A DNA stretch of 64,000 nucleotides, from contig PKUV01000160.1 in the NCBI GenBank assembly GCA_003131315.1, positions 59,804-123,803 on the forward strand, read 5' to 3'. This DNA is from Acidobacteriaceae bacterium (GTDB lineage Bacteria; Acidobacteriota; Terriglobia; Terriglobales; Acidobacteriaceae). The notes below the pieces were generated by a model. It searched no databases and was not told the DNA's origin. It was given only the letters and a program-made list of their open reading frames with translations. Within the stretch, counting starts at the first letter, position 1, and every line of letters starts with the position of its first letter. Shown piece after piece: positions 19,670 to 54,705 of this stretch. The position numbers were made by a program, and so were the translations under genes.

Positions 19670-21232
19670 CTACCCTGTTTGGAACACAGTGTCGAGCACC
19701 GTGCCATCCACCCACTTCACCACCGCCACCGGACGATCCCCCAACTTCGGCCGGGCCGGCTTGCCGCCGCAAATCTTCTCCACTTCTGCCTTGATGTCCT
19801 GAATGGGCCTAATCGACAGGCTTGATCCCTTCACCACATCCAGCAAGTCCGGGCGATTGGGATTGATCGAAATCCCTCGCTCCGTGACCACCACGTCAAT
19901 CATCTCCCCCGGGCCTGTCAGCGTGGTTACTTCATCCACAATCACGGGAATGCGGTTGCGAAACGAAGGCAACGCCAGGATCGTGCAGCCTGCTTCCAGG
20001 CAGTTCTGCCAACCGCCAATGCCGTGCATCAGTCGCCCATCTGAGTGTGTGACCACATTAGCGTTGAAGTTCACGTCCACTTCTGTAGCGCCCAACACCA
20101 CGGCATCCACCAGAGAAGCAAAGGAGCCTTTGCCGTGATAGTTGTATGACGTAAACGGCGAGGTCGCCACGTGCCGCGGATCATTCCCAATCGACTTCAC
20201 TCCATCGAGATCAATTGTCTGGCCATCGAGAATATAGTCGGTCAAGCCTTCCTGCAAGAGATCCACCAGATATTTCGTTGATCCGCCACGCACGAAGCGC
20301 GCCTTAACGCCATCTTCCTTCATCATGCGCCGCAGATAATCAACGAATGCAAGCGAAATCCCTCCTGCGCCGGCCTGGAACGAAAAGCCATTGCGCATAA
20401 TTCCGGATTCCCGCAGGAACCGCGCTACAAACTCTGCAATGCGCAATCGGTCGGGAGCGCGTGTGATCTGCGTCGTTCCCGAGACGATCTTCGCCGGATT
20501 GCCGATAGACTCGACTTCCACCACGCAATCCACATTGTTGCCCTGGATCTGCCATGGAATACACGGAAAAGGCACGAGCGTGTCAGTCACCACGATTACG
20601 GCGTCGGCATAAATGGAATCCGCTAAAGCAAACCCCAGCGACCCGCAAGCCGACTTCCCATGCGAGCCATCGGCATTGCCGAACGCGTCTGCCATGGGTG
20701 CAGCGATTACCGCAATATCAATATGAACTTCACCATCTTGCACCGCCTGCCAGCGCCCCCCATGAGAACGCAGTACGCCCATCCCACGCATTTTCCCCTG
20801 TGTGCAGTAATCGCCCAGGGGGCCGTTCATGGAACCTTCAATGTGATGAATCACGCCCTTTTCCATGAGTTCAATTGCGCCCTGTTGGGACGGAAACGAC
20901 GCGCTGGGAAACCACATCAAGTCCTTCACTCCGACTTTTTCTGCAGCGGCGAGCGCCATGAGCGCGACGCGGTCACCGTCACGCAGATGATGGTGGTTCG
21001 AGATGACCATCCCATCGCGCAGCCCACATTTGCGCAATGCGGTCTCAATGTCCACAACTCGTTTGTCACCATTTTGGGGATAGTCCTTGTTCGAGCGCAC
21101 CAGCGGGGCAGCCTTGCGCCCGCGGGGCTGATATTTGCCCACGCCAAGATAAGGAATCTGCGGCTTGCCATTCACCATGGTGGGAACCATCCGTCCCGCC
21201 GCGTTCTGCACCATATCGATTCGATCACTCAT
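19670..21232 (-). CDS. citF: citrate lyase alpha-subunit-like CoA-transferase (CitF family)
   Basis: 520 aa. N-terminus reads ...AGRMVPTMVNGKPQIPYLG...VVDIETALRKCGLRDGMVISNHHHLRDGD. Both length and motifs are typical of CitF. Confidence 0.8.
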   Translation of the reverse strand: MSDRIDMVQNAAGRMVPTMVNGKPQIPYLGVGKYQPRGRKAAPLVRSNKDYPQNGDKRVVDIETALRKCGLRDGMVISNHHHLRDGDRVALMALAAAEKVGVKDLMWFPSASFPSQQGAIELMEKGVIHHIEGSMNGPLGDYCTQGKMRGMGVLRSHGGRWQAVQDGEVHIDIAVIAAPMADAFGNADGSHGKSACGSLGFALADSIYADAVIVVTDTLVPFPCIPWQIQGNNVDCVVEVESIGNPAKIVSGTTQITRAPDRLRIAEFVARFLRESGIMRNGFSFQAGAGGISLAFVDYLRRMMKEDGVKARFVRGGSTKYLVDLLQEGLTDYILDGQTIDLDGVKSIGNDPRHVATSPFTSYNYHGKGSFASLVDAVVLGATEVDVNFNANVVTHSDGRLMHGIGGWQNCLEAGCTILALPSFRNRIPVIVDEVTTLTGPGEMIDVVVTERGISINPNRPDLLDVVKGSSLSIRPIQDIKAEVEKICGGKPARPKLGDRPVAVVKWVDGTVLDTVFQTG

Positions 21233-21544
21233 TCATTTTCCCTAAGTTTCTCCGATGGCACGTGGGAACTGGCACCTCGCCCGTGCAGTCGAGTCAAGAT
21301 CACCCCACTGGACTACAATTTCCCCACCGTAGTCATTTCTCCACCCGTTTGCGACGCTCCCTCCAATACCCGCGAGCTTTCATGATCTCTGCCTGCGTGG
21401 GGGTAAAACACCCCCATGAATTACCCAAATCTGTTCGAGATGAATGCGCCCGCGCCCTCAAATCCCATGACACGGGAATTTTTTTCCCTCGCTGGATGTC
21501 CGCCACATCGCCCGAGACCGACGGCGGAGCAAAGCTAAGCCGGT

Positions 21545-22201
21545 TTACTTCAGCCGAGATTGGTGCATTTCACTACACTCGGGGACCCTTCCCAGTCGGT
21601 GCATGGTGTCAACAATCATTTCCACAACTTGGTCGTCACCTATTGTGGTGTTGACCATCAGGTGGTAAAGGACGCGAGTAGGCCAGTCCGATCGGAAATA
21701 ATATTTCACGAAGGCCATCCTTTCGCGATCAACGATGTCAATTAATTGCCTCGCTTCCGTTTCATTTCTTCCATCTGCAACGATGCGGCGGACTTTTTCC
21801 AAGTGTGGAGCATAAAGAAAGATATGAAACGTGTCGCTTCGGTGCCTTAAGAAGTATGGCGCACCGCGGCCAACTATGACGCTATTGCCCTCTTCGGCCA
21901 CTTTCAGCGCAAGCCTTTCCATCAGGGATACCATGCAGTCGGCATCGAATATCTGAGACTCGGCAAGTGAAGTGCCACGTTCATGACTCCCCCGAAAAAA
22001 CATTTTGGCGAGGCGGTACAATCGGCCATCCAGTTTTTCATCACGGCTGTCCACGACTGCACAGTCAACCTGAGCCATCTTCGCTATTTCTTGACTCAAC
22101 AGATGATCCCAGAGCTTCCAGCCCAACCGAGCAGCTAACTTCCTCGCAATAGCCCCGCCGCCGCAGCCGTATTCGCGTTCTATAGTGATGACCCTAAACA
22201 C
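21545..22201 (-). CDS. cytidylate-kinase-like family (P-loop) protein
   Basis: VFRVITIEREYGCGGGAIARKLAARLGW. AGGAGGGG lies 8 nt upstream of the GTG at 22201. The ORF track starts at 22231. Confidence 0.7.
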   Translation of the reverse strand: MFRVITIEREYGCGGGAIARKLAARLGWKLWDHLLSQEIAKMAQVDCAVVDSRDEKLDGRLYRLAKMFFRGSHERGTSLAESQIFDADCMVSLMERLALKVAEEGNSVIVGRGAPYFLRHRSDTFHIFLYAPHLEKVRRIVADGRNETEARQLIDIVDRERMAFVKYYFRSDWPTRVLYHLMVNTTIGDDQVVEMIVDTMHRLGRVPECSEMHQSRLK

Positions 22202-22232
22202 AGTTGTGGCCCCTCCTGAGAACTGCGTCACT

Positions 22233-22298
22233 GTTCGTACATCAAAATAGTGCAGAAGCAGAAAGGTTCGTACATCAAAATAGTGCAGAAGCAGAAAG
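22233..22298. repeat. perfect 33-bp tandem duplication (2 copies)
   Basis: GTTCGTACATCAAAATAGTGCAGAAGCAGAAAG occurs at 22233-22265 and again at 22266-22298, just upstream of the cytidylate-kinase-like gene. Confidence 0.95.
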
Positions 22299-22542
22299 GC
22301 CGCTCAGTTCAGTGGGTTTGAAAACCCTCTCCCAAGCCGCACCCGCATTGGGGCCGACCGCCCGACCTTGCCCTTTTTGGGTCACTGACGTCCTCGGCAG
22401 CTCCTAGCATCGTAAATTTGATTTTCTACCCGTTCATCCTGACTGATGGAAGCGAGTGTTGTGACTCTGTCAACCGCAAAGCGCCTTCCTTGTCGGGGGA
22501 ATGCAATTACATGGCTGTCGCAACGCGGTTAGTGTAGACCGT

Positions 22543-22572
22543 TTGTCAACTGTTTGACAACTACGACAGTTG
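22543..22572. promoter_or_regulatory. nested inverted repeats (candidate operator)
   Basis: TTGTCAA-CTGT-TTGACAA lies at 22543-22560. It overlaps CAACTGT (22547-22553) ... ACAGTTG (22566-22572). TGTTTG occurs three times nearby. Confidence 0.45.
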
Positions 22573-22766
22573 TTTGTATGCTGTGTCGGCGTCGAATCAG
22601 TGTAGGCAACGCTGCAGATTTCTACGCCAAACGACTGGATCGGCAAGAACCGCTCGCAACGCTTAAGTTGCGCTGCGGAGCGCCGAACGGGTATTTTGCG
22701 ATCGCGAAGCAAGATGGCGTTCGGCTGTGTGTCGCGCAGATCGCTCCTGTGGTTAGTTCGTTCTTT

Positions 22767-23588
22767 ATGAAGGGCTCTCCCCGCAAAACGGCAATCTCGT
22801 GGGTCGAATCGGATCGTATTCTGCTGCGAGGGTATCCGATCGATGCGCTCGTGGGAAATGTATCGTGGGCAGCAGCAGTTTACCTTGCGCTGGTCGGGGA
22901 AATACCGAATCCACGGATAGCGCGGCTTCTGGAGGGCATTCTGGTCTCAGTCATCGATCATGGCCCAACCCCCGCATCCACTCTCGCAGCGTGTACAGTG
23001 GCTAGCACCGGGTCGCCGTTAGCTAGTTCTGTGGCAGCCGGGCTCCTTGCGATAGCGAAGTCTCACGGCGGGGCAATTGAAGATTGCATGAGCGTGCTGG
23101 AGCGTTGTGTGGGCCTGAAACAAGATCCGGCTACGGCCGCTGCCAAAGTGGCACGCGAGTACCGGGAACAGGCGATTAGGGTTCCCGGGTTTGGTCATCG
23201 GCAACATTCGGCGGATCCTCGTAGTATCCGATTGCTCGACCTGGCTCGCGAGCTCGATTTGTTCGGAAACTATGTCGCCCATGCACAAGCCATGGAGGAT
23301 GTTCTGTCTAGAATTGCAGGCAAGCGATTACCGCTCAATGCAGACGGAGCGATAGCTGCTCTGCTCTGCGAGATTGCATTCCCGAAAACAGCCGCGAACG
23401 GAATCTTTATGATCGCCAGGATTCCGGGCTTGGTAGCGCACTGCCTTGAAGAGCAGGCGCGTAACCTTCCGCTGCGCGCCATCGATCCGGCTGCCTATGA
23501 ATATGATGGCCCCCCCGAGCGCAGTCTCGGTGGACAGAAGCACACACCAGAAAATGCGGTCGGAGAGTCCAAGGGAATGCAACCGTGA
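22767..23588 (+). CDS. citrate-synthase-family protein, short citryl-CoA-lyase-like form
   Basis: 273 aa. ILLRGYPIDALVG...VIDHGPTPAS...VPGFGHRQHSADPR...IARIPGLVAHCLEEQ. The start at MKGSPRK was chosen over the longer 22554 frame. Confidence 0.75.
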   Translation: MKGSPRKTAISWVESDRILLRGYPIDALVGNVSWAAAVYLALVGEIPNPRIARLLEGILVSVIDHGPTPASTLAACTVASTGSPLASSVAAGLLAIAKSHGGAIEDCMSVLERCVGLKQDPATAAAKVAREYREQAIRVPGFGHRQHSADPRSIRLLDLARELDLFGNYVAHAQAMEDVLSRIAGKRLPLNADGAIAALLCEIAFPKTAANGIFMIARIPGLVAHCLEEQARNLPLRAIDPAAYEYDGPPERSLGGQKHTPENAVGESKGMQP

Positions 23589-25036
23589 GTCGCTTCGACC
23601 TGGTCATAAAAAACGGCACTCTGGTGATCCCATACACCGGCCTGGTACAAGCAGATGTTGGCGTTAAAGATGGGCGCATTGCAGCGATAGGAGAAAGCAT
23701 AGCCGCAAATGAGGCGGAGACGCTCGTTCAAGCTCGCGGCAAGATGGTGTTTCCGGGCGCGGTGGATTCCCACTATCACGTCGGCATCTACCGCCCATTT
23801 TCAAAGGACGCGGAATCCGAATCTCGATCTTCTTTGGTTGGTGGCGTCACCACGCTTCTCAGCTATTTCAGAACCGGCCACCACTACCTCGATAAGTCCG
23901 GTCCATATCGCGAAATTTTTCCACAAGTGCTCGAACTCTCTGAAGGGCACTTCTATACGGACTATGGATTTCATCTGGCGATCATGACTGCGGAGCAGTT
24001 GCTCGAGGTCGATGATCTCATCGATACATTTGGCGTCGGCTCTTTTAAGTTTTACATGTTCTACAAAGGCTTGAATTTATCCGCGGACTCGACGCGCGGA
24101 AACGATTACACCATGGCCGACAATTACGATCTTGGCCACCTCTACTTGCTCATGGAGAGAGTTTCCGCCGCTTCCCGTAAGCACGCGGACAAGGGGAGGA
24201 TTGCGCTTAGTCTTCATTGCGAAAATCCTGAATTAATCCGCGTTTTTATTGAAAGAGTCAAACGGGAGGGTAGGCGAGGGCTGGAAGCCTACAGCGAAGC
24301 GCGCCCTCCGTTGAGTGAGCGCTTATCCATTGTGGAGGCGGTATTGCTAGCCGAGGCTACGAGATGCCCGATCAATCTCCTGCACCTGAGCAGCAGGCAG
24401 GCACTCGAAGCTGGCATCAGGTCGCGCCGGGAACATCCCGAGCTCGACATTGTCTTGGAAACTACACTTCATCACCTAACTCTGACCTGCGAAACCGCAG
24501 GCGGCATGATCGGTAAAGTTAATCCCCCGATTCGGGGGCAAGAGGATATCAATTATTTATGGGAAGGTATTGCCAACGGGGAAATCGATACTGTGGTCAG
24601 CGATCACGCGTGTTGCATGGAAGAAGATAAACGAGAAGACGATCTGTGGGGCTCGCTGCCCGGCTTTGGTGGATCGTCTCTCCTGTATCCGACGCTGATC
24701 TCCGAGGGATTCCATAAGCGCAATGTCCCTCTTACGCGCATCAGCGAAATCGCTTCGGCCAACCCGGCCCGCCATTTTGGATTATTTCCTCGCAAAGGAA
24801 CGTTGGCGGTGGGCGCCGACGCCGACTTTGCAGTCATTGATCTGCACCAGACTCAGGCGGTGAATGCTGATTTGCTGCAGTCAGCACAGGATTTCACGCC
24901 GTTTGCCGGAATAAAGATCAAAGGCTGGCCAACGGAAACCATATTGCGGGGTGAAATAATGATGAAGGATGCGAAAGTTACGGCGAAACCCCGCGGACGG
25001 TACCTTCGCCGCCCTATCGAACTGCACAAGGGCTAG
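23585..25036 (+). CDS. cyclic amidohydrolase (D-hydantoinase/dihydropyrimidinase/allantoinase-like)
   Basis: GAVDSHYHVG (HxH), SFKFYMFYKG (carbamylated-Lys context), LHCEN, LLHLSS and VSDHACC. The GTGA start/stop overlaps the previous gene. Confidence 0.85.
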   Translation: MSRFDLVIKNGTLVIPYTGLVQADVGVKDGRIAAIGESIAANEAETLVQARGKMVFPGAVDSHYHVGIYRPFSKDAESESRSSLVGGVTTLLSYFRTGHHYLDKSGPYREIFPQVLELSEGHFYTDYGFHLAIMTAEQLLEVDDLIDTFGVGSFKFYMFYKGLNLSADSTRGNDYTMADNYDLGHLYLLMERVSAASRKHADKGRIALSLHCENPELIRVFIERVKREGRRGLEAYSEARPPLSERLSIVEAVLLAEATRCPINLLHLSSRQALEAGIRSRREHPELDIVLETTLHHLTLTCETAGGMIGKVNPPIRGQEDINYLWEGIANGEIDTVVSDHACCMEEDKREDDLWGSLPGFGGSSLLYPTLISEGFHKRNVPLTRISEIASANPARHFGLFPRKGTLAVGADADFAVIDLHQTQAVNADLLQSAQDFTPFAGIKIKGWPTETILRGEIMMKDAKVTAKPRGRYLRRPIELHKG

Positions 25037-25087: not shown

Positions 25088-25163
25088 TTGACAAAGGGCG
25101 CCTCTCCCATGAAAATCAGCACCTAGTGACAAGTGTTTGAAACAGAAAACAGTGGAAAACAGT
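25088..25163 (+). promoter_or_regulatory. candidate promoter and operator of duplicated module A
   Basis: TTGACA (25088-25093), then 17 nt, then GAAAAT (25111-25116). Next come the palindrome TGTTTgAAACA (25134-25144) and GAAAACAGT twice (25145, 25155). Confidence 0.35.
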
Positions 25164-25229: not shown

Positions 25230-26660
25230 ATGGCAGGCGAAAAGATAACCGCGATTGAAGCCACGTATGTGATGGTGCCAGACAACGGTTCGCAGACGAT
25301 ACTGCGCGACAAGACGGTAGTGGTGGAAGGGGACCGGATCAAGGAAGTGAGCGATCACTACGACGGTCCCGTGGATCGCCGGATCAAAGCGGAGGGCCGC
25401 CTGCTCTCTCCCGGTTTCATTAATTGTCATACACATGTGGGGTGCGCCACGTACTCACGTGGGATGGCCGAGGATCGCGACCTGGTCGAAGGCAGTGCCT
25501 TCTACCATTATTTCGTCCCGTTGCTGACAATTGGCTATAAGCATTTCACGCCTGACGAAATGTCGGCTCTCCTGGAATGGGACATTCTGGAGATGATCAA
25601 GAAGGGTTCTACCACAATTCTGGAAGAGAATTTTGGTGGTTACGACAGCGTCATCGAAATTGTGAACCGACTGGGGAACCGAGCCTACATTAGCTACAGC
25701 TATCCCAACCAAGTCAGCAAGATCGGCTACCTCAAAGACGGTAAGCTGTGCTATGACAAGCCGGATCCGATTGAGGTGGGCAAGGGTCTGAGACGGGGCC
25801 TGGAAATGTATGACAAATACAATGGGTCTGCTTCGGATCGAATCCGCGTGCGACTGAGTCCCACGGGTCCGGACACGTGTCCCCCAGAGGTCTTGAGGGA
25901 CACGCGAAAAGCCGCTGACCGACTCGGTTGTGGCATCAGTATCCACGCCGCACACCATTCCACTGAGGTGAATTTTTGCAGGAACGTCTTCAATGCCAGT
26001 CCGATCGAGCATTTGGCGAATACGGGCATTTTAGGTCCGGATACGATCATTACTCACGTTACCTACACTGACGAAAAAGACCGAAACCTGCTCGCAGCGT
26101 CGAATTCCACTGTAGTCCACTGTTCCTACCGTAAGGCGCGCGAGGCAGTCATCAGCCCCTATCATGAGTACGTTGAGAAAGGGATCAACGTCGCGCTCGG
26201 GACAGACTCTTTTTCGAGTGATATCACCGAGACCATCAAAATGGCCGGGGTACTGGGCAAGATCCGCATGGAGCGTGTTGGAGTCCCCACGGCCGTGGAA
26301 GTCATGGGCTCGGCTACATTGTCGGGGGCAAAAGGGTTGGGCCGCGATGATATCGGTCAAATCAAGGCTGGCGCGAAAGCCGATATGGTGCTGATCGACC
26401 TCACTAAGACCCACAACTTTCCTGTGATAGAGCCAATCAAGAACTTTGTCTACTATTCCTTCGGCACCGACGTGGAGACCGTCATGATCAACGGCAAAAT
26501 CGTCATCGAAAACGGCATCGCACTGACCACCGACGAGTCGGCACTTCGCAAGCGAGTGCAGGCAGCCGCGGACCGCATTTGGGCGATTGCTGCCCGCGAA
26601 GGGGCGCTGCCGGGTGTTTCGTTTGTCCCGAGTAAGAAAACAGAGCCGGTGACCGTATAG
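25230..26660 (+). CDS. Amidohydro_1 deaminase/chlorohydrolase-like amidohydrolase (module A)
   Basis: GFINCHTHVG (HxH), ISIHAAHH and ALGTDS. It resembles the cytosine/guanine/MTA-deaminase and TrzA/AtzA group, and is roughly 60% identical by eye to 32221-33660. Confidence 0.85.
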   Translation: MAGEKITAIEATYVMVPDNGSQTILRDKTVVVEGDRIKEVSDHYDGPVDRRIKAEGRLLSPGFINCHTHVGCATYSRGMAEDRDLVEGSAFYHYFVPLLTIGYKHFTPDEMSALLEWDILEMIKKGSTTILEENFGGYDSVIEIVNRLGNRAYISYSYPNQVSKIGYLKDGKLCYDKPDPIEVGKGLRRGLEMYDKYNGSASDRIRVRLSPTGPDTCPPEVLRDTRKAADRLGCGISIHAAHHSTEVNFCRNVFNASPIEHLANTGILGPDTIITHVTYTDEKDRNLLAASNSTVVHCSYRKAREAVISPYHEYVEKGINVALGTDSFSSDITETIKMAGVLGKIRMERVGVPTAVEVMGSATLSGAKGLGRDDIGQIKAGAKADMVLIDLTKTHNFPVIEPIKNFVYYSFGTDVETVMINGKIVIENGIALTTDESALRKRVQAAADRIWAIAAREGALPGVSFVPSKKTEPVTV

Positions 26661-37038: not shown

Positions 37039-37056
37039 TGTTTATTTATGTAAACA
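37039..37056. promoter_or_regulatory. 18-bp palindrome TGTTTA-N6-TAAACA upstream of hyuA
   Basis: Read directly. It is followed by CAATTG and a TATTAT -10-like box (37064-37069). The same architecture occurs at 45335-45352. Confidence 0.45.
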
Positions 37057-39245: not shown

Positions 39246-39289
39246 CCGGAGACAGTTGTTGTACGCACAGCATTTAGGTCCGAAGAGTT

Positions 39290-41149: not shown

Positions 41150-41192
41150 GTCAACTCGCGAGTTGAGTAGCACTACTTCGGGCGGCGGGTTC

Positions 41193-41202
41193 AACAATTG
41201 TT
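41193..41202. promoter_or_regulatory. perfect 10-bp palindrome AACAATTGTT upstream of the CoA-transferase gene
   Basis: Read directly, 29 nt upstream of the 41231 ATG. It shares the ACAATTGT core with 45330-45337. Confidence 0.3.
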
Positions 41203-41230
41203 TACAACCCGCTGCGTAAGGGCAATCTGA

Positions 41231-43446: not shown

Positions 43447-43610
43447 TCTCACACCATCCCATTCTGCAATCGGTTGCTTTAAAGTGCCCAACGCGGCTAA
43501 TCATATACGAATAGCCGCCTGTTTCGCTACGCAGTCAAAAGTTGTTTCAGAATCGGAGGCTCGGACGTCGGGACCGAGCTTGAGAATCAGTTGAGGTGGA
43601 AAGAGCAACA

Positions 43611-45280: not shown

Positions 45281-45292
45281 CGCGTTTTGGTC

Positions 45293-45352
45293 TTGACATT
45301 TGATCTTGACAAGTGATAACAAGTTGAGCACAATTGTTTGGTTTGGCAAACA
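45293..45352 (+). promoter_or_regulatory. candidate promoter and operator of the second receptor operon
   Basis: TCTTGACA occurs twice (45291-45298 and 45304-45311). TTGACA (45306-45311) is followed by 17 nt, then CACAAT (45329-45334), then the palindrome TGTTTG-N6-CAAACA (45335-45352). Confidence 0.45.
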
Positions 45353-48300: not shown

Positions 48301-48800
48301 TGAACCAAACGGGAGTGGCTGACGCGATTCTAGGGGGCTGGCAGTGGGGCGGGCTGGCCACTATTGAATCTGGAACTCCATTCACAGTGCAATTGACAGG
48401 CAATGTAAGCGGGATTGCGAGTTCCAGCGCAGATCGCCCGAATTGCGTGGCGGATCCAAACGTGGGCGCTCCTCAGACGGTGGAAGAGTGGTTTAATGTA
48501 GATGCTTTTGCGCCGAATACTAAGATTGTTCCACCGACTGGCTCCCCTTACAAACTCCTGGGAAACTGCGGGCGAAACATTGTGCAAGGCCCTCCCGTTC
48601 GTAATTACGACATGACTCTCGCTAAGGTGTTCAGTCTCACAGAGCGCGCACACCTGGAGTTCCGGACAGACTTCTTCGACGTCTTGAACCATCCGAACTT
48701 TAATACACCGAATCGTTATTTCGGGACTGCGACGTTTGGACAAATCACTTCGGCGCAGCTCCCACGATTAATCCAATTTGGATTGCGTCTTTCATTTTAA
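45372..48800 (+). CDS. TonB-dependent receptor with a carboxypeptidase-regulatory-like domain (second copy)
   Basis: AGGAGGGG lies before the ATG at 45372. It has a signal peptide, GLVTDSTGAVLPHAEVNATS...DGYYHIASLPVGTYDI, and a C-terminal ...FGLRLSF. Confidence 0.9.
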   Translation: MKTIRQTPRYQVVRAFLPNVAHAPASLAIVVCLLMMTGYSSAQATASVEGLVTDSTGAVLPHAEVNATSLSMGLARTGAADADGYYHIASLPVGTYDITATLAGFKKTLLNGVTLTVGQAARINITMQVGDVQQAIEVQGIAPLVDTTTTEVGGVVENKQIMSMPLNGRHFLQLGLLIPGVSEPQTGSTQAQWGTAGGNIGFSVAGQRDSYNNFTLDGVNVMDTNYNTLTVSPSVDAVQEFRIIADGYSAKYGIVPGAQVDIVTRSGTNGFHGSAYEYFRNSVLDAKNYFDDPTRSTPPYKQNQFGGTLGGPIKKDRAFFFLSLEGLRIRQSLTQTTTVPTLAMHNGDLSGINPGTGQPFPQITDVNGVPYPDNQVPLTAISPLAAGILAMTPLPNIPNAAPGQSNYLAVASRYDNSTVYQGRIDYQLTPKNLASVRYTQQQDDSSSPFVHRFSPVLPGSNGFGDVGNSMGHNVGISVTSVVTPSLVNTFRFGYNGLHAIVESQNIDSDFIQKLGYTRYGNTQNYGIPYISIPGLGGLGDSDTLQPNIRRNNGFELRNDVSWTRGRFTHDFGADYWLYHLAGVTDTFSNGQFQFGSDTGFGQNATGSGFSDFLLDRPRVSLIQLGVGYGYFRYKYFGTYYAGQFRATPHLTVNFGLRWEFSTSPTPINGTVMSVLDMAAGAIVLGSQSGQMPSLSDPLTQYFINNFGTTFKTNRQLGLPASINPTHYLNLAPRFGFTWDALGDSRLVVRSSAGLFNSFQERGYSVESGVLGPPFAPTIATFQDSLYFPTTPNTYETTYAFGGPSDRTSDNGGPSTAGVPPGVRPGYVEEWTLSLQSQVRKNTVAELSYAGNHGVHLNGFYLADQNFPNTPEARGGFPPNTRFGESFQEHSAGMSWYHGLSGRIQQRVQQGLTFTVGYTWARSEDTVSTFTGGPTDSPVPQNSYDLAGNKGLSNFDRRNRFIVNYLWDLPFGHGKKFLNQTGVADAILGGWQWGGLATIESGTPFTVQLTGNVSGIASSSADRPNCVADPNVGAPQTVEEWFNVDAFAPNTKIVPPTGSPYKLLGNCGRNIVQGPPVRNYDMTLAKVFSLTERAHLEFRTDFFDVLNHPNFNTPNRYFGTATFGQITSAQLPRLIQFGLRLSF

Positions 48801-48804
48801 CAAA

Positions 48805-50118
48805 ATGGCATACCGGCCAACTCGAAGGCAGCTGCTAGGCGCCTTATCCGCGGGTGGACTGATGTGGGGGACGGTCAGAAACATTGTGGGAATGCCCATT
48901 TCGGCCGCACCGCTAACGTCGGAGCCATCCGCGCCGCCGAGTGGGAGCTCTGCTTTTCCGACTCCACCTATCTCCGTTGCCGCATTTACTAAACGAATTG
49001 CCAGAATTCGCGAGCAGATGCGAGCAGATAAGTTAGATTGCTTGCTTGTTTCCTCGGTCCTGAACCATGCGGTTCGATATTTGGGTTTTTTTGACCCGGA
49101 ACTGCAGGGCCGCGGGTCCGGTTCGTCCCAGCTGGTCTCCGTTCTCCTGCCGATCGAGGGCGATCCGGTACTGTTTCTGCAGACTTTTACGGCCGCGGGG
49201 TATATGCGTCCGCGAGCCGAGGCATCGAGCCATATAAAGGATATAAGGCTGGTGGGGGGTGATAACCAGCAGGTGCTTCAGTTAGTAGTGGATCAGATAC
49301 ACTCCTGGAAGTTGGACGGCGGCCGGCTTGGCTTGGCCGGTGGAGAGATTGACTGGGCTGAGCGGTTATTCTTTGCGCAGTTTTTGCCGCGGGTCAACCT
49401 GGTTGACGCTAACGCGATGCTGAGTCTCTTGCGCATAGTCAAGGATGCGGAAGAGATTGAATTGATGAGACATTCCGCCGCCATCGGCGATACGGCCATG
49501 GCTGAAGTTGAAAGAAGTATCGCGCCGGGTGTGACGGATTTCGAACTCTATGCGCGAGGTCAAGCCAGTATGCTGTCGGCGGGAGGCGAAGAGGATACTT
49601 TTGTCCTAATGGGCATCGGACCGAATCAAAATACTATGCTCATGGAACTGCTGAACGGACGGAGGCTCAGCAGAGGCAATGTGGTAGTTTACGAAACATT
49701 GCCATTTTACCGTTTGTATAACACGGAACTGGCGGTCACATTCTCATTAGGACCTGCCTCTGCAATGCAAAAGCGAGCGGCAGATGCTTGTCAGGCGGCC
49801 TACGAGGCCGGCGTGGCCGAAGCCAGGCCAGGAGTTCCGGCCTCCAAGGTCGTGGATGCTTCGTTAGCGGTATTCCAAGCCCACGGCTTTGATTCTTTCA
49901 CGCATACACCAGGTCACTTCATAGGTCTGGATAACTACGAAGGGCCATCTTTGCGCTCACGCGATATCGTTCTTGAGACCGGTATGATCTTCAGCTTTCA
50001 CCCGAACGTCGTGATTCCAGAGCAGGTTAAGGAAGAAATCTGCGGGATTCTGCTGGTGACGGACAAAGGAGTGGAGAATCTTTCGAAGTATCCACCCCGG
50101 GGTATGCGGGTCGTGTAG
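48805..50118 (+). CDS. M24-family (creatinase/prolidase fold) protein with a Tat signal, paralog A
   Basis: It has [19 protein letters not shown], a creatinase/prolidase-type N-domain and a pita-bread C-domain. By eye the metal positions read E,E,H,(Y)E,H,L rather than D,D,H,E,E. Confidence 0.75.
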   Translation: MAYRPTRRQLLGALSAGGLMWGTVRNIVGMPISAAPLTSEPSAPPSGSSAFPTPPISVAAFTKRIARIREQMRADKLDCLLVSSVLNHAVRYLGFFDPELQGRGSGSSQLVSVLLPIEGDPVLFLQTFTAAGYMRPRAEASSHIKDIRLVGGDNQQVLQLVVDQIHSWKLDGGRLGLAGGEIDWAERLFFAQFLPRVNLVDANAMLSLLRIVKDAEEIELMRHSAAIGDTAMAEVERSIAPGVTDFELYARGQASMLSAGGEEDTFVLMGIGPNQNTMLMELLNGRRLSRGNVVVYETLPFYRLYNTELAVTFSLGPASAMQKRAADACQAAYEAGVAEARPGVPASKVVDASLAVFQAHGFDSFTHTPGHFIGLDNYEGPSLRSRDIVLETGMIFSFHPNVVIPEQVKEEICGILLVTDKGVENLSKYPPRGMRVV

Positions 50119-50134: not shown

Positions 50135-51493
50135 GTGCATGACTGGGACCTGAATCGTCGCGAGCTCCTGAAGCTTGCTGCTCTAGCAGCCGGCGGGGCA
50201 GTTTCGCTTCATCCCGATGCCTTGGGGCAAAACCAAGATCCTTCCGCTAAAGGCTCTGGAGCACAAAGCGAGGAAGGTCGTGGCAAAGCTAAGAGTGCTG
50301 TTTCCCTGCATCCGTCAGTCGAAATGGCGACCTTGTATTCGAAGGAATATGGACGCCGGCGCATCCAGAAAATTCAGGCCGCTGTAAGACAGGCCAATCT
50401 CGACGCTCTGATCGTAACCAATCGCGGACTAGATTACATCGGGTACGTGAGCAATTTCCATCCTTATCCCCTGGAACCAGGGATGGCTCTCGTGTTAGCT
50501 GACGGGCCATCGACTCTGTTCGTGAACACATACAGCAGTGCCCATACCCGCGCCCTCATTCCGATTGTTTGGACGGACGAATTGGTGGATGTTCCGCGTG
50601 ATTCGGTGTCGGAAGGTAGCAATCAGAATCTGGTAGACGCATGTATTCAGAAATTGCAGGACCGGAAACTGCAGCGAGGCAGGATCGGACTGGCGGGCGA
50701 TGAGATTGATTGGCTTCTTCCGTTTTACTTTCGAAATCGCCTGCCGGACGCGAAGGCAGAGGATGCGAATCGCACTCTGACGCAAGTCATTGTAGTAAAA
50801 GATGAAGTCGAATTGGCGCTCATCCGGTTTGCGCAGGGACTTATCGACGAAGTCGCCTATCCGGTTTTTCGAGAGGTTCTGCGTCCCGGGGCGATGGATC
50901 AAGCGGTATACGCACGGGTGCTGGCCAGCATGCTGGAGCGGGGCGCGAACCCGGCCACGGTCCTGCTCTTCGATGCTGGCCCCGCGGGTTCGGGCACATG
51001 GGCCAGCGGAACGCGTGGACGCCGGCTGGAAAAGGGCGACATCATCCTCTCTGAACCTACCCCGAATATCGCCGGGTATCAATCCGAAAAAATGTACACA
51101 TTTGCGCTTGGCCGCGAAATACCAGAGTCGCAAAAACACGGATCAGAAGTCATCTACGAAGCCTACCAATTGCTGATGAGCGAATTGAAAGTGGGTCAGG
51201 AATTGACGCCGATCGTCCAGAGAGTCGAGGCGTTTATTCGGAGCCATGGATACGATGGCTCAACGGTCCCGGTCGGGCATTGGATCGGGACTCAGAACCA
51301 TGAAGGGCCGCGTTTCACCGTAGAAGGAACGCGCGGCTGGGTGTTGCAGAAAGATATGGTCATGAGTTGGCACCCCAATATCGTGGTACCGGGCAAGGTG
51401 CGTACAACGTGCTCAACTTGTGTCCTGCTCACTGAGAAGGGGGCGGAGGATCTGTCCACGATTAAGATGGAGCCGATCTATTATCTGGAATAG
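50135..51493 (+). CDS. M24-family protein with a Tat signal, paralog B
   Basis: VHDWDLNRRELLKLAALAAGGA, GDIILSE, GYQSE, VGHWIG, NHEGP, SWHPN and VLLTEKG. Confidence 0.75.
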   Translation: MHDWDLNRRELLKLAALAAGGAVSLHPDALGQNQDPSAKGSGAQSEEGRGKAKSAVSLHPSVEMATLYSKEYGRRRIQKIQAAVRQANLDALIVTNRGLDYIGYVSNFHPYPLEPGMALVLADGPSTLFVNTYSSAHTRALIPIVWTDELVDVPRDSVSEGSNQNLVDACIQKLQDRKLQRGRIGLAGDEIDWLLPFYFRNRLPDAKAEDANRTLTQVIVVKDEVELALIRFAQGLIDEVAYPVFREVLRPGAMDQAVYARVLASMLERGANPATVLLFDAGPAGSGTWASGTRGRRLEKGDIILSEPTPNIAGYQSEKMYTFALGREIPESQKHGSEVIYEAYQLLMSELKVGQELTPIVQRVEAFIRSHGYDGSTVPVGHWIGTQNHEGPRFTVEGTRGWVLQKDMVMSWHPNIVVPGKVRTTCSTCVLLTEKGAEDLSTIKMEPIYYLE

Positions 51494-51501: not shown

Positions 51502-52488
51502 ATGCCTCTCACCATGATTCGAAAAATGCTACTGCAGTTGTTGTTTCTCTCGGGCCTGTGCGTAGTTAGCCAGAGCCAGCAATCCCAGCCGATCATTGAT
51601 GTGCATGTGCACGCCTATCCCGCGGATTGGGTGAGGAATGTGCTGGGACCGCTCGCGACGGAAAGCGATAAGCTGCCTGATCCTCCGAATCCCATCACCG
51701 GCACGCGTTCCGGGGCCATCACCAACGAGCAACTGCGTAACGCGATGTTGGCGGCAATGAGGCGTTACAACATAGTTAAAGCCGTTGCGAGCGGTCCACT
51801 CGATATCGTCTCACAGTGGAAGACTGCGGATCCTGATCGGATCATCGGCTCCCCTTTATTTCCCATTCCTAAGATGGCGCCCTATCCGACGATTGAGGAG
51901 CTTCGCCAGGGCTACACATCCGGGCGCCTCGGCGCATTAGGCGAGGTTACGGCGATCTACGACGGGCTATCCCCCAGCGACCCCAAGATGGACGGGTACT
52001 ACACTTTGGCTGAGGAGATGGACATCCCTGTCGGAATCCATACGGGGATTGGAATCCCGGAGGCTTCGTATAGCTGCTGCCCAGGTTTTCGAATCGGCTT
52101 AGCTAACCCGCTGAATCTGGAAGAACTGCTGGTCCGGCATCCGCGATTACGGGTTTACGTCATGCACGCCGGGTATCCCTATCTGGACGCAACGCTGGCA
52201 CTGATGAACGCCTACCCGAAGATCTACGCCGACCTGGCAGCCATTGATTGGCTTCTTCCCCGGGATGAGTTTCAGCAATATTGTTCGAGGCTCATCCAAG
52301 CGGGCATGGGGAAGCGCTTGATGTTTGGGACGGACGAAATCGTCTGGCCCGATGCCTTCGGAGTTGCAATCGATAACATTAACTCCATGAGCGCTCTCAC
52401 TCCCGAGGAAAAGGCCGACATTTTTTATAACAATGCAGCACGTTTCTTCCATCTGGACCGCGCCAAACCCCAGTCGTCCAGGAGGTAA
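51502..52488 (+). CDS. exported Amidohydro_2 protein
   Basis: It has a signal peptide and the motifs IIDVHVHAYP (HxH present), VMHAGYPYLD and FGTDE. Confidence 0.8.
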   Translation: MPLTMIRKMLLQLLFLSGLCVVSQSQQSQPIIDVHVHAYPADWVRNVLGPLATESDKLPDPPNPITGTRSGAITNEQLRNAMLAAMRRYNIVKAVASGPLDIVSQWKTADPDRIIGSPLFPIPKMAPYPTIEELRQGYTSGRLGALGEVTAIYDGLSPSDPKMDGYYTLAEEMDIPVGIHTGIGIPEASYSCCPGFRIGLANPLNLEELLVRHPRLRVYVMHAGYPYLDATLALMNAYPKIYADLAAIDWLLPRDEFQQYCSRLIQAGMGKRLMFGTDEIVWPDAFGVAIDNINSMSALTPEEKADIFYNNAARFFHLDRAKPQSSRR

Positions 52489-52492: not shown

Positions 52493-52939
52493 TTGCCCGC
52501 ACGCCGGATAGCCACAAAGAAACGCAGATCATCTACAATTGCTCTGCAAGATCGCGCCTCAGCCTTTTTTGGAGTCCTCGCGAAGGATGCAGATGGACGC
52601 CGGCTGTTGGCGGAGCAAAACCATCGTATCGAATTTGATCTCACCGATGATGATCCGTTCTGCGTGCAAATAAAGAACGGGCGCGTTGGAACGAGGGCGA
52701 GCGTCACCGAACCGCAGCGTTACGATGTCAACGATCTCATACATTTTCAGCTCTCCGAGGTGACATTGGCGCGACTGTTCGACGGTAAGATCCGATTCAC
52801 CGACGCGCTGATTCCGATTCGGCAGGACGGCAGTGATGCCATGCTTCTGTTGGAATGCACCTTGTTCAAATGGAGTGTCCTGAGCTGGGTAGGCCGTCTT
52901 TTTCGGGGCGCTCAGCTCCGAATTGGTGGGCAGGCATGA
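52493..52939 (+). CDS. SCP2/sterol-carrier-like small protein
   Basis: IEFDLTDDDPFCVQIKNGRV...DVNDLIHFQLSEVTLARLFDGKIRFTDALI resembles the SCP2 fold pattern. The TTG at 52493 has AGGAGG 8 nt upstream. There is an ATGA overlap with the next gene. Confidence 0.5.
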   Translation: MPARRIATKKRRSSTIALQDRASAFFGVLAKDADGRRLLAEQNHRIEFDLTDDDPFCVQIKNGRVGTRASVTEPQRYDVNDLIHFQLSEVTLARLFDGKIRFTDALIPIRQDGSDAMLLLECTLFKWSVLSWVGRLFRGAQLRIGGQA

Positions 52940-54060
52940 GTACATTTCAAGCAGGGCTAACCAGGAGAAACCTGTTGCTGCTCGGTGCGCTTGCGTATCC
53001 CGGTAAGGTTCTCATGAACTGGAATTCTGATCGTAAAGCGGCCTCGTCCATGAATATCGATATCTATACGCATTTCTTCCCCCCCGCGTACGCAAGAGAA
53101 ATTACCCGGCGCGCAACACGCACCCACCCGGACGTCCCCAATATCGAAATGCTGATGCGCTTGTTTCCTAATTTGTGCGAGTTCGAAACACGTCTAGCGC
53201 ATATGGATCGATATGAAACGTCGCTCCAGGTATTGACTCCTCTTCCGATCCCGGCAGACCTGTTCGTCGGTGATTCGTCGGCCGCCGCGGCTTTGGTTCG
53301 GGTTGCCAATGATGCGATGGCCGAGGCGATCGCGAAGCGGCAGGATCGTTTTGCCGGTGTGGCATTGTTGTGTTTCTTGAACCCGGAGGAAGCTGCGAAC
53401 GAGTTGGAACGGGCAGTAAAGCACCTTGGACTGAAAGGGGCGATGCTCTTTACCAACATTGCCGGCCGACCCGTCGACATGCCTCAACTCTTTCCAGTCT
53501 ACGAGAGAGCGCAGGGCCTGGACGTGCCCCTCTGGATCCATCCGATTTCGTGGAATTATTATGATTGGGTCCGTGACTACTTAATTTGGCAGGTCTTTGG
53601 CTGGCCGATGGACACGACTTTGGCAATGGCTCGTCTGGTTTATGGCGGAGTACTGGAGAAATTCCCCAAGTTGAAATTCATTACTCACCATGCAGGTGGC
53701 ACCACGCCGTATCTCATTGGGCGGGTGATCGACACCTATGATCAAAATGAGGAATTGACGCGGCTCTCGGAATCTGGTCCGAGTGCCCCTCGGCCGGCAG
53801 CAAAGAAGCCTATTGATTACTATCGAATGTTTTATGGCGACACCGCTCTTTCGGGAATTGCTACCGCGATGGGCTGCGCTTATGAGATGTTCGGATCGGA
53901 GCACATGGTGTTTGGCTCTGATTACCCGTTTGGACCAGATAGCGGACAGCGCTTTATCCATTCGAACCTGGCGGCGATTGACACCCTGAAGCTGCCGGGC
54001 CGCGATCAAAGAAGGATCCTGGTCGAAAATGCTCGGTCCCTGCTCAGAATGAAGGCTTGA
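52936..54060 (+). CDS. Amidohydro_2 protein with a Tat-like signal
   Basis: MSTFQAGLTRRNLLLLGAL, NIDIYTHFFP, FITHHAGG and VFGSDYPF. Confidence 0.8.
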   Translation: MSTFQAGLTRRNLLLLGALAYPGKVLMNWNSDRKAASSMNIDIYTHFFPPAYAREITRRATRTHPDVPNIEMLMRLFPNLCEFETRLAHMDRYETSLQVLTPLPIPADLFVGDSSAAAALVRVANDAMAEAIAKRQDRFAGVALLCFLNPEEAANELERAVKHLGLKGAMLFTNIAGRPVDMPQLFPVYERAQGLDVPLWIHPISWNYYDWVRDYLIWQVFGWPMDTTLAMARLVYGGVLEKFPKLKFITHHAGGTTPYLIGRVIDTYDQNEELTRLSESGPSAPRPAAKKPIDYYRMFYGDTALSGIATAMGCAYEMFGSEHMVFGSDYPFGPDSGQRFIHSNLAAIDTLKLPGRDQRRILVENARSLLRMKA

Positions 54061-54261
54061 AGCCTAGGAAAAACAAAACTCCATTTCAAAGGGACGGGTG
54101 GGATGGGGTTGTCGCAGTAACGTGAATCGCCAAAGGGCCAAACGAGCTTGTTCATATCGCCCAATTCGACAATTGCAGTAGCTAATTTTCGACTGGGCAG
54201 AGTGCAGCCATAGCCCTCTTCTGGTCTTTAGAATCAGAGAGAGTTTGAAAAGGAGATGTCC

Positions 54262-54705
54262 ATGAAGAAACTGATTTCGATGTTTACTGCCCTGATCGTA
54301 TGCGCCTGCGTGGCAGCGGCGCAGGACCAAACGCAGGCCCAGCCCGAGAAAGCCATCAAGCATGTCCCCATTAAGTCCACGTCGCCTGTATCCGGCAAGG
54401 ACATGTACACGGCATACTGTGCCGTTTGCCATGGAACAGACGGCAAAGGCGGAGGTCCTGCAGCCAGCGCGCTGAAGACTCCTCCCACCGACCTTACCCT
54501 GATGAGCAAGAACAACGGAGGGAAATATCCGGCGCTGAAAGTCTCGTCCTCCATCCGCGGCGAAACCGCTCTTCCCGCGCACGGATCCAAGGAGATGCCG
54601 GTGTGGGGAGCGTTGTTTTGGAGCATGAGTAGTGGACATGAGAGCGAGGTGCAGCAACGCGTGGCGAACCTTAGCCACTACATCGAATCTCTGCAAGCGA
54701 AGTAG
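54262..54705 (+). CDS. exported monohaem class I cytochrome c
   Basis: It has a signal peptide, a single CAVCHG haem motif and a distal KEMPVWG Met. AAGGAG lies 7 nt upstream of the ATG at 54262. Confidence 0.8.
   Translation: MKKLISMFTALIVCACVAAAQDQTQAQPEKAIKHVPIKSTSPVSGKDMYTAYCAVCHGTDGKGGGPAASALKTPPTDLTLMSKNNGGKYPALKVSSSIRGETALPAHGSKEMPVWGALFWSMSSGHESEVQQRVANLSHYIESLQAK

Follow-up and report, generated by a model that had tools for sequence, protein, structure and literature searches.

Gene content of the locus

The 64-kb window analysed here (the whole stretch of 64,000 nucleotides, from an Acidobacteriaceae bacterium) contains at 19670-54705 a hydrolase-dominated gene cluster of about 35 kb with about 27 genes, numbered from g1 at its left end to g28 at its right end. 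Between 15 and 60 kb, all open reading frames (ORFs) of 100 aa or more were listed and the plausible genes were scanned against Pfam and NCBIfam, with starts taken from gene calls on contigs of the same species (several of them shorter than the maximal ORFs); Sec and twin-arginine (Tat) leaders were judged by eye. Features lie on the plus strand unless marked otherwise. The scans recovered, almost item by item, the inventory of an earlier note made from the sequence alone (hydrolases, Rid proteins, major facilitator superfamily (MFS) transporters, a receptor, a GntR regulator and a cytochrome c), to which a Cytidylate_kin2-like gene (g2) and an orphan of 148 aa (g25), both overlooked there, have to be added. 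An ORF at 54064-55041 (minus) is antisense to the cytochrome c gene and was called by no gene caller. The cluster encodes five Amidohydro_2 proteins (g7, g8, g13, g24 and g26) and two CoA-transferase/lyase pairs (CitF-like g1 with citryl-CoA-lyase-like g3, and family-III g17 with HMGL-like g19), and by a rough estimate chance is very unlikely to have brought together eight amidohydrolase-superfamily genes in a set of about 27. The GC content of the cluster is about 0.54, compared with 0.58-0.60 in the immediate flanks.

NCBIfam subfamily cutoffs were passed only by g3 and g19, and equivalog cutoffs by no protein. We found no paper on such a cluster, and no described counterpart was found in the literature on combinations of RidA, hydantoinase and amidohydrolase, on combinations of NicX, amidohydrolase and RidA, and on citrazinic acid gene clusters, in agreement with the earlier statement that the locus matches no described pathway. 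Oxidoreductase genes that had escaped recognition were a possible objection raised in the same note; the scans revealed no dehydrogenase, flavoprotein, Rieske or P450 domain in any ORF of the cluster.

Paralogous modules and the NicX-fold protein

Two paralogous modules stand in tandem: module A (g5-g9) comprises an Amidohydro_1, a triple Rid, an Amidohydro_2, a second Amidohydro_2 and an MFS gene, and module B (g11-g14) has the same set minus the second Amidohydro_2, with paralogue identities of 66% (g5/g11), 67% (g6/g12), 68% (g7/g13) and 46% (g9/g14). The Amidohydro_1 proteins g5 (25230-26660; PF01979) and g11 (32227-33660; PF01979, 2.5e-41) are of the COG0402 type (deaminase/chlorohydrolase class). 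Both keep the HxH and HxxE motifs (H98-x-H100 and H274-STE in g5, H74-x-H76 and H250-QRE in g11), which upholds the deaminase-type class proposed earlier, and neither matches a characterised specificity: equivalog models stayed below cutoff, and the best model, the subfamily model NF004801, gave 277 bits for g5 and 300 bits for g11 against a cutoff of 416. The top PDB matches of g11 (about 1e-35) are uncharacterised amidohydrolases, and the named enzymes among the nearest solved relatives of g5 and g11 are MTA/SAH deaminase, 8-oxoguanine deaminase and atrazine chlorohydrolase (1e-27 to 1e-30). Plasmid homologues of g11 (about 32% identity) stand in uninformative contexts. A KpiC-like dioxygenase was considered for g5 and g11 and rejected, because KpiC groups with enamidase-like proteins and not with COG0402.

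The Amidohydro_2 proteins g7 (27913-28797), g8 (28846-29727; module A only, about 40% identical to g7 and g13) and g13 (34855-35817) all match PF04909, with the D-x-H-x-H motif replaced by D-x-S-x-N in g7 and g13 and by D-x-C-x-N in g8; these replacements are kept in every orthologue. Among solved structures, the uncharacterised BB4693 (3irs, 7e-14 for g13) comes closest to them. Characterised members of Amidohydro_2 are largely decarboxylases, hydratases and lactonases. The earlier note had counted all five Amidohydro_2 proteins of the cluster as C-N hydrolases, for which PDB matches and family knowledge give no support, three of the five (g7, g8 and g13) being without the HxH motif. Each module ends with its MFS transporter, g9 (29744-30985; PF07690, 2e-53) in module A and g14 (35814-37037; PF07690, 2e-61) in module B.

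The proteins g6 (26691-27863; PF01042 in three stretches) and g12 (33657-34835; AF2 model with pLDDT 90.7 and pTM 0.92) consist of three fused Rid domains each. In an alignment to E. coli RidA and YjgH, the position of RidA Arg105 is occupied by W, W and W in g6 and by W, S and W in g12; E. coli YjgH likewise carries a Trp there, the triple-Rid family as a whole shares W102 and W368 without exception, and the best PDB match of the first domain is E. coli YjgH (1pf5, 4.7e-13). By these residues g6 and g12 appear to be Rid7/YjgH-like, an assignment that does not separate Rid7 from Rid4, which also has Trp. Imine hydrolysis depends on this catalytic arginine, Rid4 and Rid7 have Trp in its place, and Rid7 of S. 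enterica showed no imine-hydrolase activity when tested (PMC4433059); in the Trp, g6 and g12 agree with Rid4 and Rid7. With Arg105 replaced by Trp or Ser in six of six domains of Rid7/YjgH type, the earlier suggestion of RidA-type aminomuconate deaminases is not supported. Fusions of three RidA domains have been described (PMC4433059) and resemble g6 and g12 in carrying three Rid domains in one chain, presumably a covalent trimer; however, they belong to the arginine-bearing RidA subfamily, whereas all domains of g6 and g12 are Rid7/YjgH-like, and here the fusion is duplicated and, in this clade, always located between Amidohydro_1 and Amidohydro_2 genes. The triple-Rid family is seldom found (37 representatives at E<=1e-30 among 1.84 billion), no structure in the PDB holds such a fusion, and genes for pyridoxal phosphate-dependent enzymes or flavin adenine dinucleotide (FAD) amine oxidases, the typical company of RidA, are absent from the cluster.

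Between the two modules lies g10 (31065-32201; PF26233, AF2 pLDDT 88), a protein of the NicX/M29 fold with a putative E/H/H/D metal site. Its AF2 model matched NicX (7cn3) in Foldseek with E 7e-22 and a TM score of 0.68-0.73, and M29 aminopeptidases with a TM score of about 0.55. The Fe(II) of NicX is bound by His265, Ser302, His318 and Asp320, and alanine mutants of these ligands lose all activity (PMC7910607). In a profile alignment, H318 and D320 of NicX correspond to H329 and D331 of g10, which are invariant in the g10 family together with E281 and H313; H265 is replaced by E281, S302 by Ala, and the invariant H313 aligns with NicX L300. The substrate-positioning Glu177 and His189 of NicX correspond to Gly and Phe in the g10 family profile, and E281 and H313 align with a conserved Glu and His of the M29 aminopeptidase PepS. 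The earlier description as "M29/NicX-like" is thus correct for the fold, whereas NicX chemistry is contradicted by the loss of two of the four Fe ligands and of two substrate-binding residues, and a function as NicX-type 2,5-dihydroxypyridine 5,6-dioxygenase was rejected on the same grounds. Judged by its residues, the site resembles a metallohydrolase site (M29-like) more than the site of NicX. The cluster scans showed no member of the families of 6-hydroxynicotinate monooxygenase, N-formylmaleamate deformylase or maleate isomerase. However, KpiC (PF01979, amidohydrolase superfamily) and the M29-fold NicX are both ring-cleaving dioxygenases (PMC7356986), and since such hydrolase-fold dioxygenases exist, missing oxygenase domains are insufficient to establish the "purely hydrolytic", oxygen-independent route suggested earlier.

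Conservation in relatives

A scan of one genome per species with a triple-Rid profile yielded 56 loci, against which all proteins of the window were compared by BLAST. Identical proteins occur on contigs of dead-wood, peat and soil metagenomes and in the metagenome-assembled genome (MAG) GCA_003131305.1; in the genome collection, the closest relatives at species level are MAGs that mostly carry the label Acidobacteriaceae, Terriglobia or Acidobacteriota, and no cultured relative with the cluster was found. Six Terriglobia species, with identities of 59-95%, share the gene order from g4 to g19. The left end, with g2 on the minus strand divergent from g3-g4, is kept in three of three close metagenome contigs down to 76% identity, and two of these (L075 and L076) also carry g1, in the arrangement g1-g2|g3-g4.

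Two relatives are especially informative. OZ255618.1 (L014/L085) is without HyuA, HyuB, the CoA-transferase, HMGL and the isochorismatase-family gene, and has g4-g14 joined to the kinase-like gene, GntR, the receptor, both M24 genes, an Amidohydro_2, the 148-aa gene and another Amidohydro_2. Because this genome keeps the rest joined without the block, we regard HyuAB, g17, g19 and g20 as an accessory block, and the two halves of the window's cluster as belonging together. In the more distant GCA_041493975.1 (L086; 52-80% identity) the same families are present in a different order: the receptor operon and the orthologues of g24 and g25 are followed by a NicX-like gene, OsmC, an Amidohydro_1, a g26-like Amidohydro_2, a triple Rid and two Amidohydro_2 genes. 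That gene content survives rearrangement in this genome is a textbook indication of functional coupling. The co-occurrence in other genomes that the earlier note had asked for is therefore found, both as an order kept in six Terriglobia species and as families kept despite rearrangement. The OsmC-family gene of GCA_041493975.1 (15370-15981 of its locus) stands in the cluster between the NicX-like and Amidohydro_1 genes and could hint at a peroxide-related step; the window's own species has an OsmC gene beyond the efflux operon downstream of the cluster.

Outside Terriglobia the triple-Rid gene lies mostly in unrelated neighbourhoods (Amycolatopsis, Chloroflexi and most Alphaproteobacteria), mostly without cluster genes, and its use as a universal pathway marker was rejected. 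HyuA or HyuB occurs within 10 kb of a triple Rid in 11 of 47 loci, M24 and Amidohydro_2 genes accompany it in L016 and L032, and in the Dehalococcoidia (L008/L019) an Amidohydro_2 and then an Amidohydro_1 gene come after it. These distant contexts are compatible with organic-nitrogen catabolism and name no substrate. At positions 3410-20049 of L017 (OZ244653.1, an unclassified bacterium) a triple Rid is divergent from PNPOx-like, Amidohydro_2, M24, short-chain dehydrogenase/reductase, amidase and CN-hydrolase genes, with a Mo-hydroxylase of the xanthine dehydrogenase family nearby; this locus may be a simpler system for studying triple-Rid function.

A shared operator-like motif

The intergenic regions of the cluster share an operator-like, partly palindromic motif of the ACAATTGTTTG type, which precedes at least six putative transcription units. 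ACARTTGTTT, with at most one mismatch, occurs 12 times in the window against 5.3 expected, a count reached by one of 100 shuffles, and 11 of the 12 matches fall between 22566 and 45339. Within about 1.5 kb of intergenic DNA there are eight matches at seven distinct sites: upstream of g3 in the divergent g2|g3 region (ACAGTTGTTT, 22566-22575), upstream of g5 (ACAAGTGTTT, 25129-25138), upstream of the HyuA gene g15 (37052-37061, minus), in the gap between g15 and g16 (ACAGTTGTTG, 39252-39261), upstream of g17 (the palindromic AACAATTGTTT, 41192-41203), in the divergent g18|g19 region upstream of g19 (AAAGTTGTTT, 43538-43547) and upstream of the receptor gene g21 (ACAATTGTTT, 45330-45339).

The sites of the relatives were not used to derive the motif, and its conservation there is an independent test. 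Upstream of the g5 orthologue, ACAATTGTTTG (ACAAGTGTTTG in L015) is present in six of six relatives amid otherwise diverged sequence; the motif also precedes the HyuA orthologue in L010 and L015, and the receptor orthologue with two copies in OZ255618.1 and one in GCA_041493975.1. Gene order, linkage and this shared motif support the earlier view of a single conserved, apparently co-regulated catabolic cluster with uptake components. Promoter and terminator scans found fewer sites than in shuffled sequence and are uninformative on operon boundaries, and Rfam detected no riboswitch or other RNA inside the cluster.

Left end, accessory genes and regulator

At the left end, g1 (19670-21232, minus) encodes a CoA/ACP-transferase of the citrate lyase alpha-subunit (CitF) family (PF04223, 1e-124; TIGR01584 with 465 bits against a cutoff of 501) and stands alone, with no citD or citE nearby. 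The Cytidylate_kin2-like g2 (21545-22201, minus; PF13189, 1.3e-38) has a P-loop without the usual Lys, as judged by eye, and travels with the cluster, because its homologue in OZ255618.1 lies inside the plus-strand operon, after the second MFS gene. The protein g3 (22578-23588) is citryl-CoA lyase-like, with the citrate-synthase C-terminal fold (NF004869, 243 bits against 212), with a stop that overlaps the g4 start; distant homologues of g3 (40-47% identity, L078-L081) have no cluster genes around them. A perfect 33-nt tandem duplication (GTTCGTACATCAAAATAGTGCAGAAGCAGAAAG, two copies) is present at 22233-22299 in the divergent g2|g3 region.

The cyclic amidohydrolase g4 (23585-25036) belongs to the D-hydantoinase/allantoinase/dihydropyrimidinase class (PDB 1nfg, 2e-56; 3hm7, 8e-56). 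Its sequence contains the HxH motif (H63, H65) and FKFY, a candidate carbamylated-Lys motif, which would fit the hydantoinase-like class named earlier; HCE, LHLSS and SDHA were matched to the remaining dihydropyrimidinase ligand positions by eye only. It stays below all equivalog cutoffs (allantoinase, dihydropyrimidinase, dihydroorotase and ErtD), with 261 bits against 631 at best.

The accessory block begins with g15 (37116-39245; PF01968, PF05378, PF19278) and g16 (39290-41149; PF02538, 7.5e-141), the HyuA and HyuB subunits of the hydantoinase/oxoprolinase family, of which HyuA reached 520 bits in the caprolactamase alpha model against a cutoff of 1000. It further comprises the family-III (CaiB/Frc-type) CoA-transferase g17 (41231-42484; PF02515, 1.6e-120; below equivalog cutoffs), g19 of the HMG-CoA lyase subfamily (43611-44549; NF004283, 328 bits against 246) and the isochorismatase-family amidase g20 (44609-45280). 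The PDB matches of g20 are 26st, an N-carbamoylsarcosine amidohydrolase (1.4e-72), 4l07 (7.5e-47), 1nba (2e-39) and 3ot4/3uao (5e-33); 4l07 and 3ot4/3uao we take to be maleamate amidases, a name that the PDB match table does not give. This closeness to N-carbamoylsarcosine and maleamate amidases is consistent with the NicF/CSHase-type amidase named in the earlier note. With g3 and g19 both above NCBIfam subfamily cutoffs, its proposal that the route ends with hydroxy-acids being activated by CoA and cleaved by lyases is also reasonable.

The GntR-family gene g18 (42490-43446, minus; PF00392), a candidate regulator of the cluster, has a C-terminal domain of about 220 aa without a Pfam match, and its position is unchanged in all relatives compared.

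Receptor and exported enzymes

The receptor gene g21 (45372-48800) encodes an outer-membrane protein with a Sec-type leader, a CarboxypepD_reg domain (PF13620) and a large, TonB-dependent-receptor-like beta-barrel (PF25183, 4e-212); no plug domain was matched at E<=0.001. It adjoins M24 genes in OZ255618.1 and GCA_041493975.1 as well. Just upstream, at 45286-45317, a 13-nt unit (TCTTGACA..) is repeated twice next to ACAATTGTTT and may be a duplicated -35-like element.

Downstream of the receptor, g22 (48862-50118; TRRQLL leader) and g23 (50135-51493; NRRELLK leader; 32% identical to g22) encode exported M24-fold proteins with the pita-bread catalytic domain PF00557 and the Creatinase_N domain PF01321; the twin-arginine motif recurs in the g22 orthologues P0331, P0335, P0336, P0338 and P0340. 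For the dinuclear metal site of E. coli PepP we take D260, D271, H354, E383 and E406 as the five ligands. In a low-identity, moderately reliable alignment the first four of these correspond to E, E, H and H in 11 of 11 members of the g22/g23 subfamily, and the fifth to C/S or to an unalignable position. The earlier label "M24 creatinase/prolidase-like" therefore holds for the fold and for the Creatinase_N domain, and requires correction in that the metal site is remodelled and the proteins are exported. Because identity to g22 falls from 55% to 27% at the next homologues, this M24 subfamily is confined to the clade.

The Amidohydro_2 protein g24 (51502-52488; PF04909) represents an orphan subfamily that keeps HxH (IIDVHVH) and whose sole PDB match has an E-value of 5e-4; the gene is conserved in OZ255618.1 and GCA_041493975.1, in the latter together with its Sec-type leader. 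The 148-aa orphan g25 (52493-52939) was called by gene callers and has orthologues of 54-61% identity at the same position in both genomes; a by-eye suspicion of an SCP2-like protein was abandoned, as no Pfam match appeared even at E<=1. The last enzyme, g26 (52936-54060), is an Amidohydro_2 protein placed by similarity in the ACMSD/LigW/gamma-resorcylate decarboxylase class (PDB ACMSD 4e-32; LigW, IDCase and gamma-resorcylate decarboxylase are matched as well). Its H-x-H motif reads Y-x-H, and this Tyr motif (IDIYTH) is conserved in its orthologues. A Tat-like leader is present on g26 in this genome only, the orthologues in OZ255618.1 and GCA_041493975.1 being without one, and g26 was not counted as exported. 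None of the other enzymes of the cluster, apart from g22, g23 and g24, carries a leader. The small exported cytochrome c g28 (54256-54705; PF00034, 3e-6) starts 196 nt after g26; the earlier note had included it, and it is probably not part of the system, as no cytochrome c domain follows the cluster in OZ255618.1.

A proposed nitrogen-compound system and its alternatives

We consider it fairly probable that the locus is one GntR-controlled catabolic system of uncultured Acidobacteriaceae/Terriglobia, assimilating one or two closely related organic nitrogen compounds rich in amidine or amide groups. Its layout of receptor, exported enzymes, two MFS importers, cytoplasmic enzymes and local regulator resembles that of a polysaccharide utilization locus (PUL). 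From the gene content, conservation, cis-motif, signal peptides and active-site residues described above we infer each chemical step, and the order of the steps, as follows. The compound would be imported across the outer membrane by g21 and trimmed in the periplasm by the Tat-signal M24-fold proteins g22 and g23 and the Sec-signal Amidohydro_2 g24, perhaps with g25 and g26, and two related products would be taken up by the paralogous MFS carriers g9 and g14. Two cytoplasmic trios, each of a COG0402-type Amidohydro_1, a triple Rid7-like protein and an HxH-less Amidohydro_2, would process these products, which may then pass on to the NicX-fold g10 and the hydantoinase-class ring opener g4, so that nitrogen would be removed hydrolytically in deaminase-type, ring-opening and amidase steps. 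In most members the accessory genes would add an ATP-dependent HyuAB lactam/hydantoin hydrolase and the carbamoyl/half-amide amidase g20. The carbon skeleton might end as 3-hydroxy-polycarboxylates that are activated and cleaved by the two CoA-transferase/lyase pairs, g1 and g3 handling a citrate-type acid and g17 and g19 an HMG- or citramalate-type acid. Since both lyase pairs point to 3-hydroxy-3-substituted dicarboxylates, the rings opened could be cyclic imides or amides of 3-substituted 3-hydroxy-dicarboxylic acids, yielding citrate-/HMG-like acids and ammonia, a guess that we regard as doubtful; citrate-/HMG-derived imides, 2,6-dioxygenated pyridine or piperidine carboxylates and citryl-amide natural products are examples proposed with low confidence. 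The divergently placed GntR protein g18 is the candidate binder of the motif.

Several points weigh against this proposal. Binding of the motif by g18 is an assumption, and the motif was derived from the same window, which makes the number of its matches there a partly circular argument. The relatives are without exception metagenome-assembled genomes; since HyuAB, the CoA-transferase, HMGL and isochorismatase can be present or absent, at least part of the region is a separable module; most triple-Rid genes of other phyla have no cluster-like neighbours; and the Tat leader of g26 is missing in two orthologues. As all enzymes stay below the equivalog cutoffs, each reaction is an extrapolation from the chemistry of a superfamily, and several proteins deviate from their prototypes at catalytic positions, so that their chemistry may differ from what the family names suggest.

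The region might instead be a mosaic of independent nitrogen-scavenging operons lying side by side without a shared pathway (peptide uptake and trimming, hydantoin- or creatinine-type hydrolysis, use of citrate or HMG). The loss of HyuAB, CoA-transferase, HMGL and isochorismatase as a block from OZ255618.1, the many unrelated contexts of the triple-Rid family, the peptidase genes flanking the cluster (two S10, one M61) and the presence of at least six putative transcription units are in line with a mosaic. However, gene content is conserved under rearrangement in GCA_041493975.1 and order in six species, units in both halves, accessory genes included, are preceded by the phylogenetically conserved motif, and the g22 subfamily of M24 occurs only in genomes with this cluster; we therefore consider a mosaic unlikely. 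The peptidases next to the cluster also bear on a further explanation, the degradation of peptides or peptidomimetics (proline-rich or cyclic peptides, diketopiperazines, peptide siderophores) through receptor import, M24/M29-like trimming and opening of cyclic dipeptides by the hydantoinase-class enzyme. The TonB-type receptor adjoining two M24-fold proteins, the residues of g10 that align with the conserved Glu and His of PepS, and the S10 and M61 peptidases immediately upstream would suit it, yet in the subfamily as a whole other residues stand in for three of the four canonical M24 metal ligands that could be aligned, COG0402-type enzymes, HyuAB and CoA-transferase/lyase pairs are by family knowledge not peptide-degrading, and the flanking peptidases were not seen beside the cluster in the relatives examined, which makes this explanation most improbable.

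Two described pathways share parts of their enzyme set with the cluster. Creatinine or N-methylhydantoin could be assimilated through deamination by Amidohydro_1, ATP-dependent ring opening by HyuAB, cleavage of N-carbamoylsarcosine by g20 and the action of a creatinase-like M24 protein. HyuA, HyuB, the deaminase-type Amidohydro_1 and the CSHase-like g20 (1.4e-72 to N-carbamoylsarcosine amidohydrolase, 2e-39 to the Arthrobacter CSHase 1nba) recall the known route from creatinine through N-methylhydantoin and N-carbamoylsarcosine to sarcosine, the M24 proteins have Creatinase_N and match creatinase (1chm, 4.5e-16), and in Corynebacterium CshA and HyuB have been linked to the breakdown of N-methylhydantoin to sarcosine (PMC8864220). 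Against this, the cluster scans detected no creatininase and no sarcosine oxidase or dehydrogenase; the conserved core can do without HyuAB and g20, which are accessory, maleamate amidases are further close matches of g20, and the M24 proteins have export leaders. Such a route would moreover leave the receptor, the two CoA-transferase/lyase pairs, the triple-Rid proteins and the five Amidohydro_2 proteins without a role or counterpart, and we judge it very unlikely. An oxidative, pyridine-type route with hidden oxygenases would have g10 or an amidohydrolase-fold enzyme cleave a dihydroxypyridine ring with O2, an Amidohydro_2 decarboxylate in the manner of PicC, and g20 serve as a NicF-type maleamate amidase. 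The nic/pic clusters of Pseudomonas and Alcaligenes (NicX/PicD, NicF/PicF, PicC) do resemble the locus in the NicX fold of g10 (TM 0.68-0.73, with PF26233), in the isochorismatase-family g20 with its similarity to 4l07 and 3ot4/3uao (presumably maleamate amidases, though not so named in the match table) and in the putative decarboxylase-class Amidohydro_2 g26; a Mo-hydroxylase accompanies the triple Rid in L017, and KpiC and NicX set the precedent for hydrolase-fold dioxygenases (PMC7356986). However, H265, S302, E177 and H189 of NicX, and with them two of the four Fe ligands and the dihydroxypyridine-binding residues (PMC7910607), are not conserved in g10, the site of which resembles an M29 hydrolase; KpiC belongs to an enamidase-like branch and not to COG0402; and the cluster has no Mo- or flavin-hydroxylase, N-formylmaleamate deformylase or maleate isomerase, and instead many extra families and an outer-membrane receptor. 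A pyridine-type route thus appears quite unlikely.

A bolder form of the proposed GntR-controlled system would see in the duplicated trio a new catalytic unit with the first biochemical role for a Rid7-type protein, and in the cluster an oxygen-independent, purely hydrolytic mineralisation of a natural N-heterocycle or cyclic imide/amide to citrate-/HMG-type acids and ammonia; this we regard as a long shot. If the GntR-controlled system exists as proposed, it would add an uncharacterised organic-nitrogen route in abundant, uncultured Acidobacteria of peat, soil and dead wood, and a genomic context for Rid7-like triple fusions, Amidohydro_2 proteins without the metal motif, remodelled exported M24 proteins and a NicX-fold protein with an M29-like site. 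Large orphan catabolic clusters are, on the other hand, frequent in soil bacteria. The functions of Rid4 to Rid7 "remain mysterious" (Niehaus et al. 2015, PMC4433059), a question made testable here, since the Amidohydro_1 gene upstream and the Amidohydro_2 gene downstream point to a coupled assay.

Comparison with other known systems

Among further systems, PUL-like loci with TonB receptors in Bacteroidota and Acidobacteriota share with the cluster the combination of receptor, exported hydrolases, inner-membrane importers, cytoplasmic enzymes and local regulator, whereas the cargo here is of amidohydrolase, M24 and Rid type instead of glycoside hydrolases, and a SusD-like partner is absent. 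The two CoA-transferase/lyase pairs have their likeness in citrate lyase with citryl-CoA lyase, and in Chloroflexus, which has a succinyl-CoA:citramalate CoA-transferase and an R-citramalyl-CoA lyase of the HMGL family; in each case a CoA-transferase and a lyase act on a 2-/3-hydroxy-polycarboxyl-CoA, and g3 and g19 pass the corresponding subfamily cutoffs. The citrate lyase comparison differs in that g1 is a stand-alone CitF-like protein without ACP or beta subunit, and both comparisons in that the pairs here are embedded in a nitrogen-compound cluster and their substrates are putative. Cyclic-imide and hydantoin routes, such as the late steps of nicotinate catabolism in Aspergillus nidulans (PMC9304392), likewise use a ring opener, as g4 might be, and then an amidase, as g20 might be, to reach a dicarboxylate, and D-hydantoinases are reported to open 3-substituted glutarimides (PMC13098106). 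Here, by contrast, the presumed products would feed CoA-transferase/lyase pairs, uptake and periplasmic parts are present, and imide activity of g4 is putative.

Flanking regions

Immediately upstream of the cluster are genes for two S10-like serine carboxypeptidases (13414-15066 and 15077-16717, minus) and one M61-like peptidase (16797-18539). The left flank that follows (18540-19669) is gene-poor; an 85-aa fragment with an OEP (outer-membrane efflux) domain, probably a pseudogene remnant, was called there on same-species contigs. On the right, about 1.1 kb (54706-55790) is without a credible gene. An island boundary at 55.3-55.6 kb had been suspected by eye from a tRNA-3'-end-like sequence (TTCGAATCCCACTCTCTCCGCCA) and a 57-aa ORF resembling an integrase N-terminus (55392-55565), and was rejected after ARAGORN, Rfam and Pfam gave no support. 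Further downstream, the minus strand (55792-60745) encodes a small YgaP-like membrane protein and, in one operon, an RND efflux system (AcrB-type gene at 56004-59294, membrane-fusion protein gene at 59291-60745), beyond which OEP and OsmC genes follow on same-species contigs. An Acido-Lenti-1 small RNA (RF01687; 53.5 bits against a gathering threshold of 37, E 2.9e-9) was matched at 60514-60559, within and antisense to the membrane-fusion gene.

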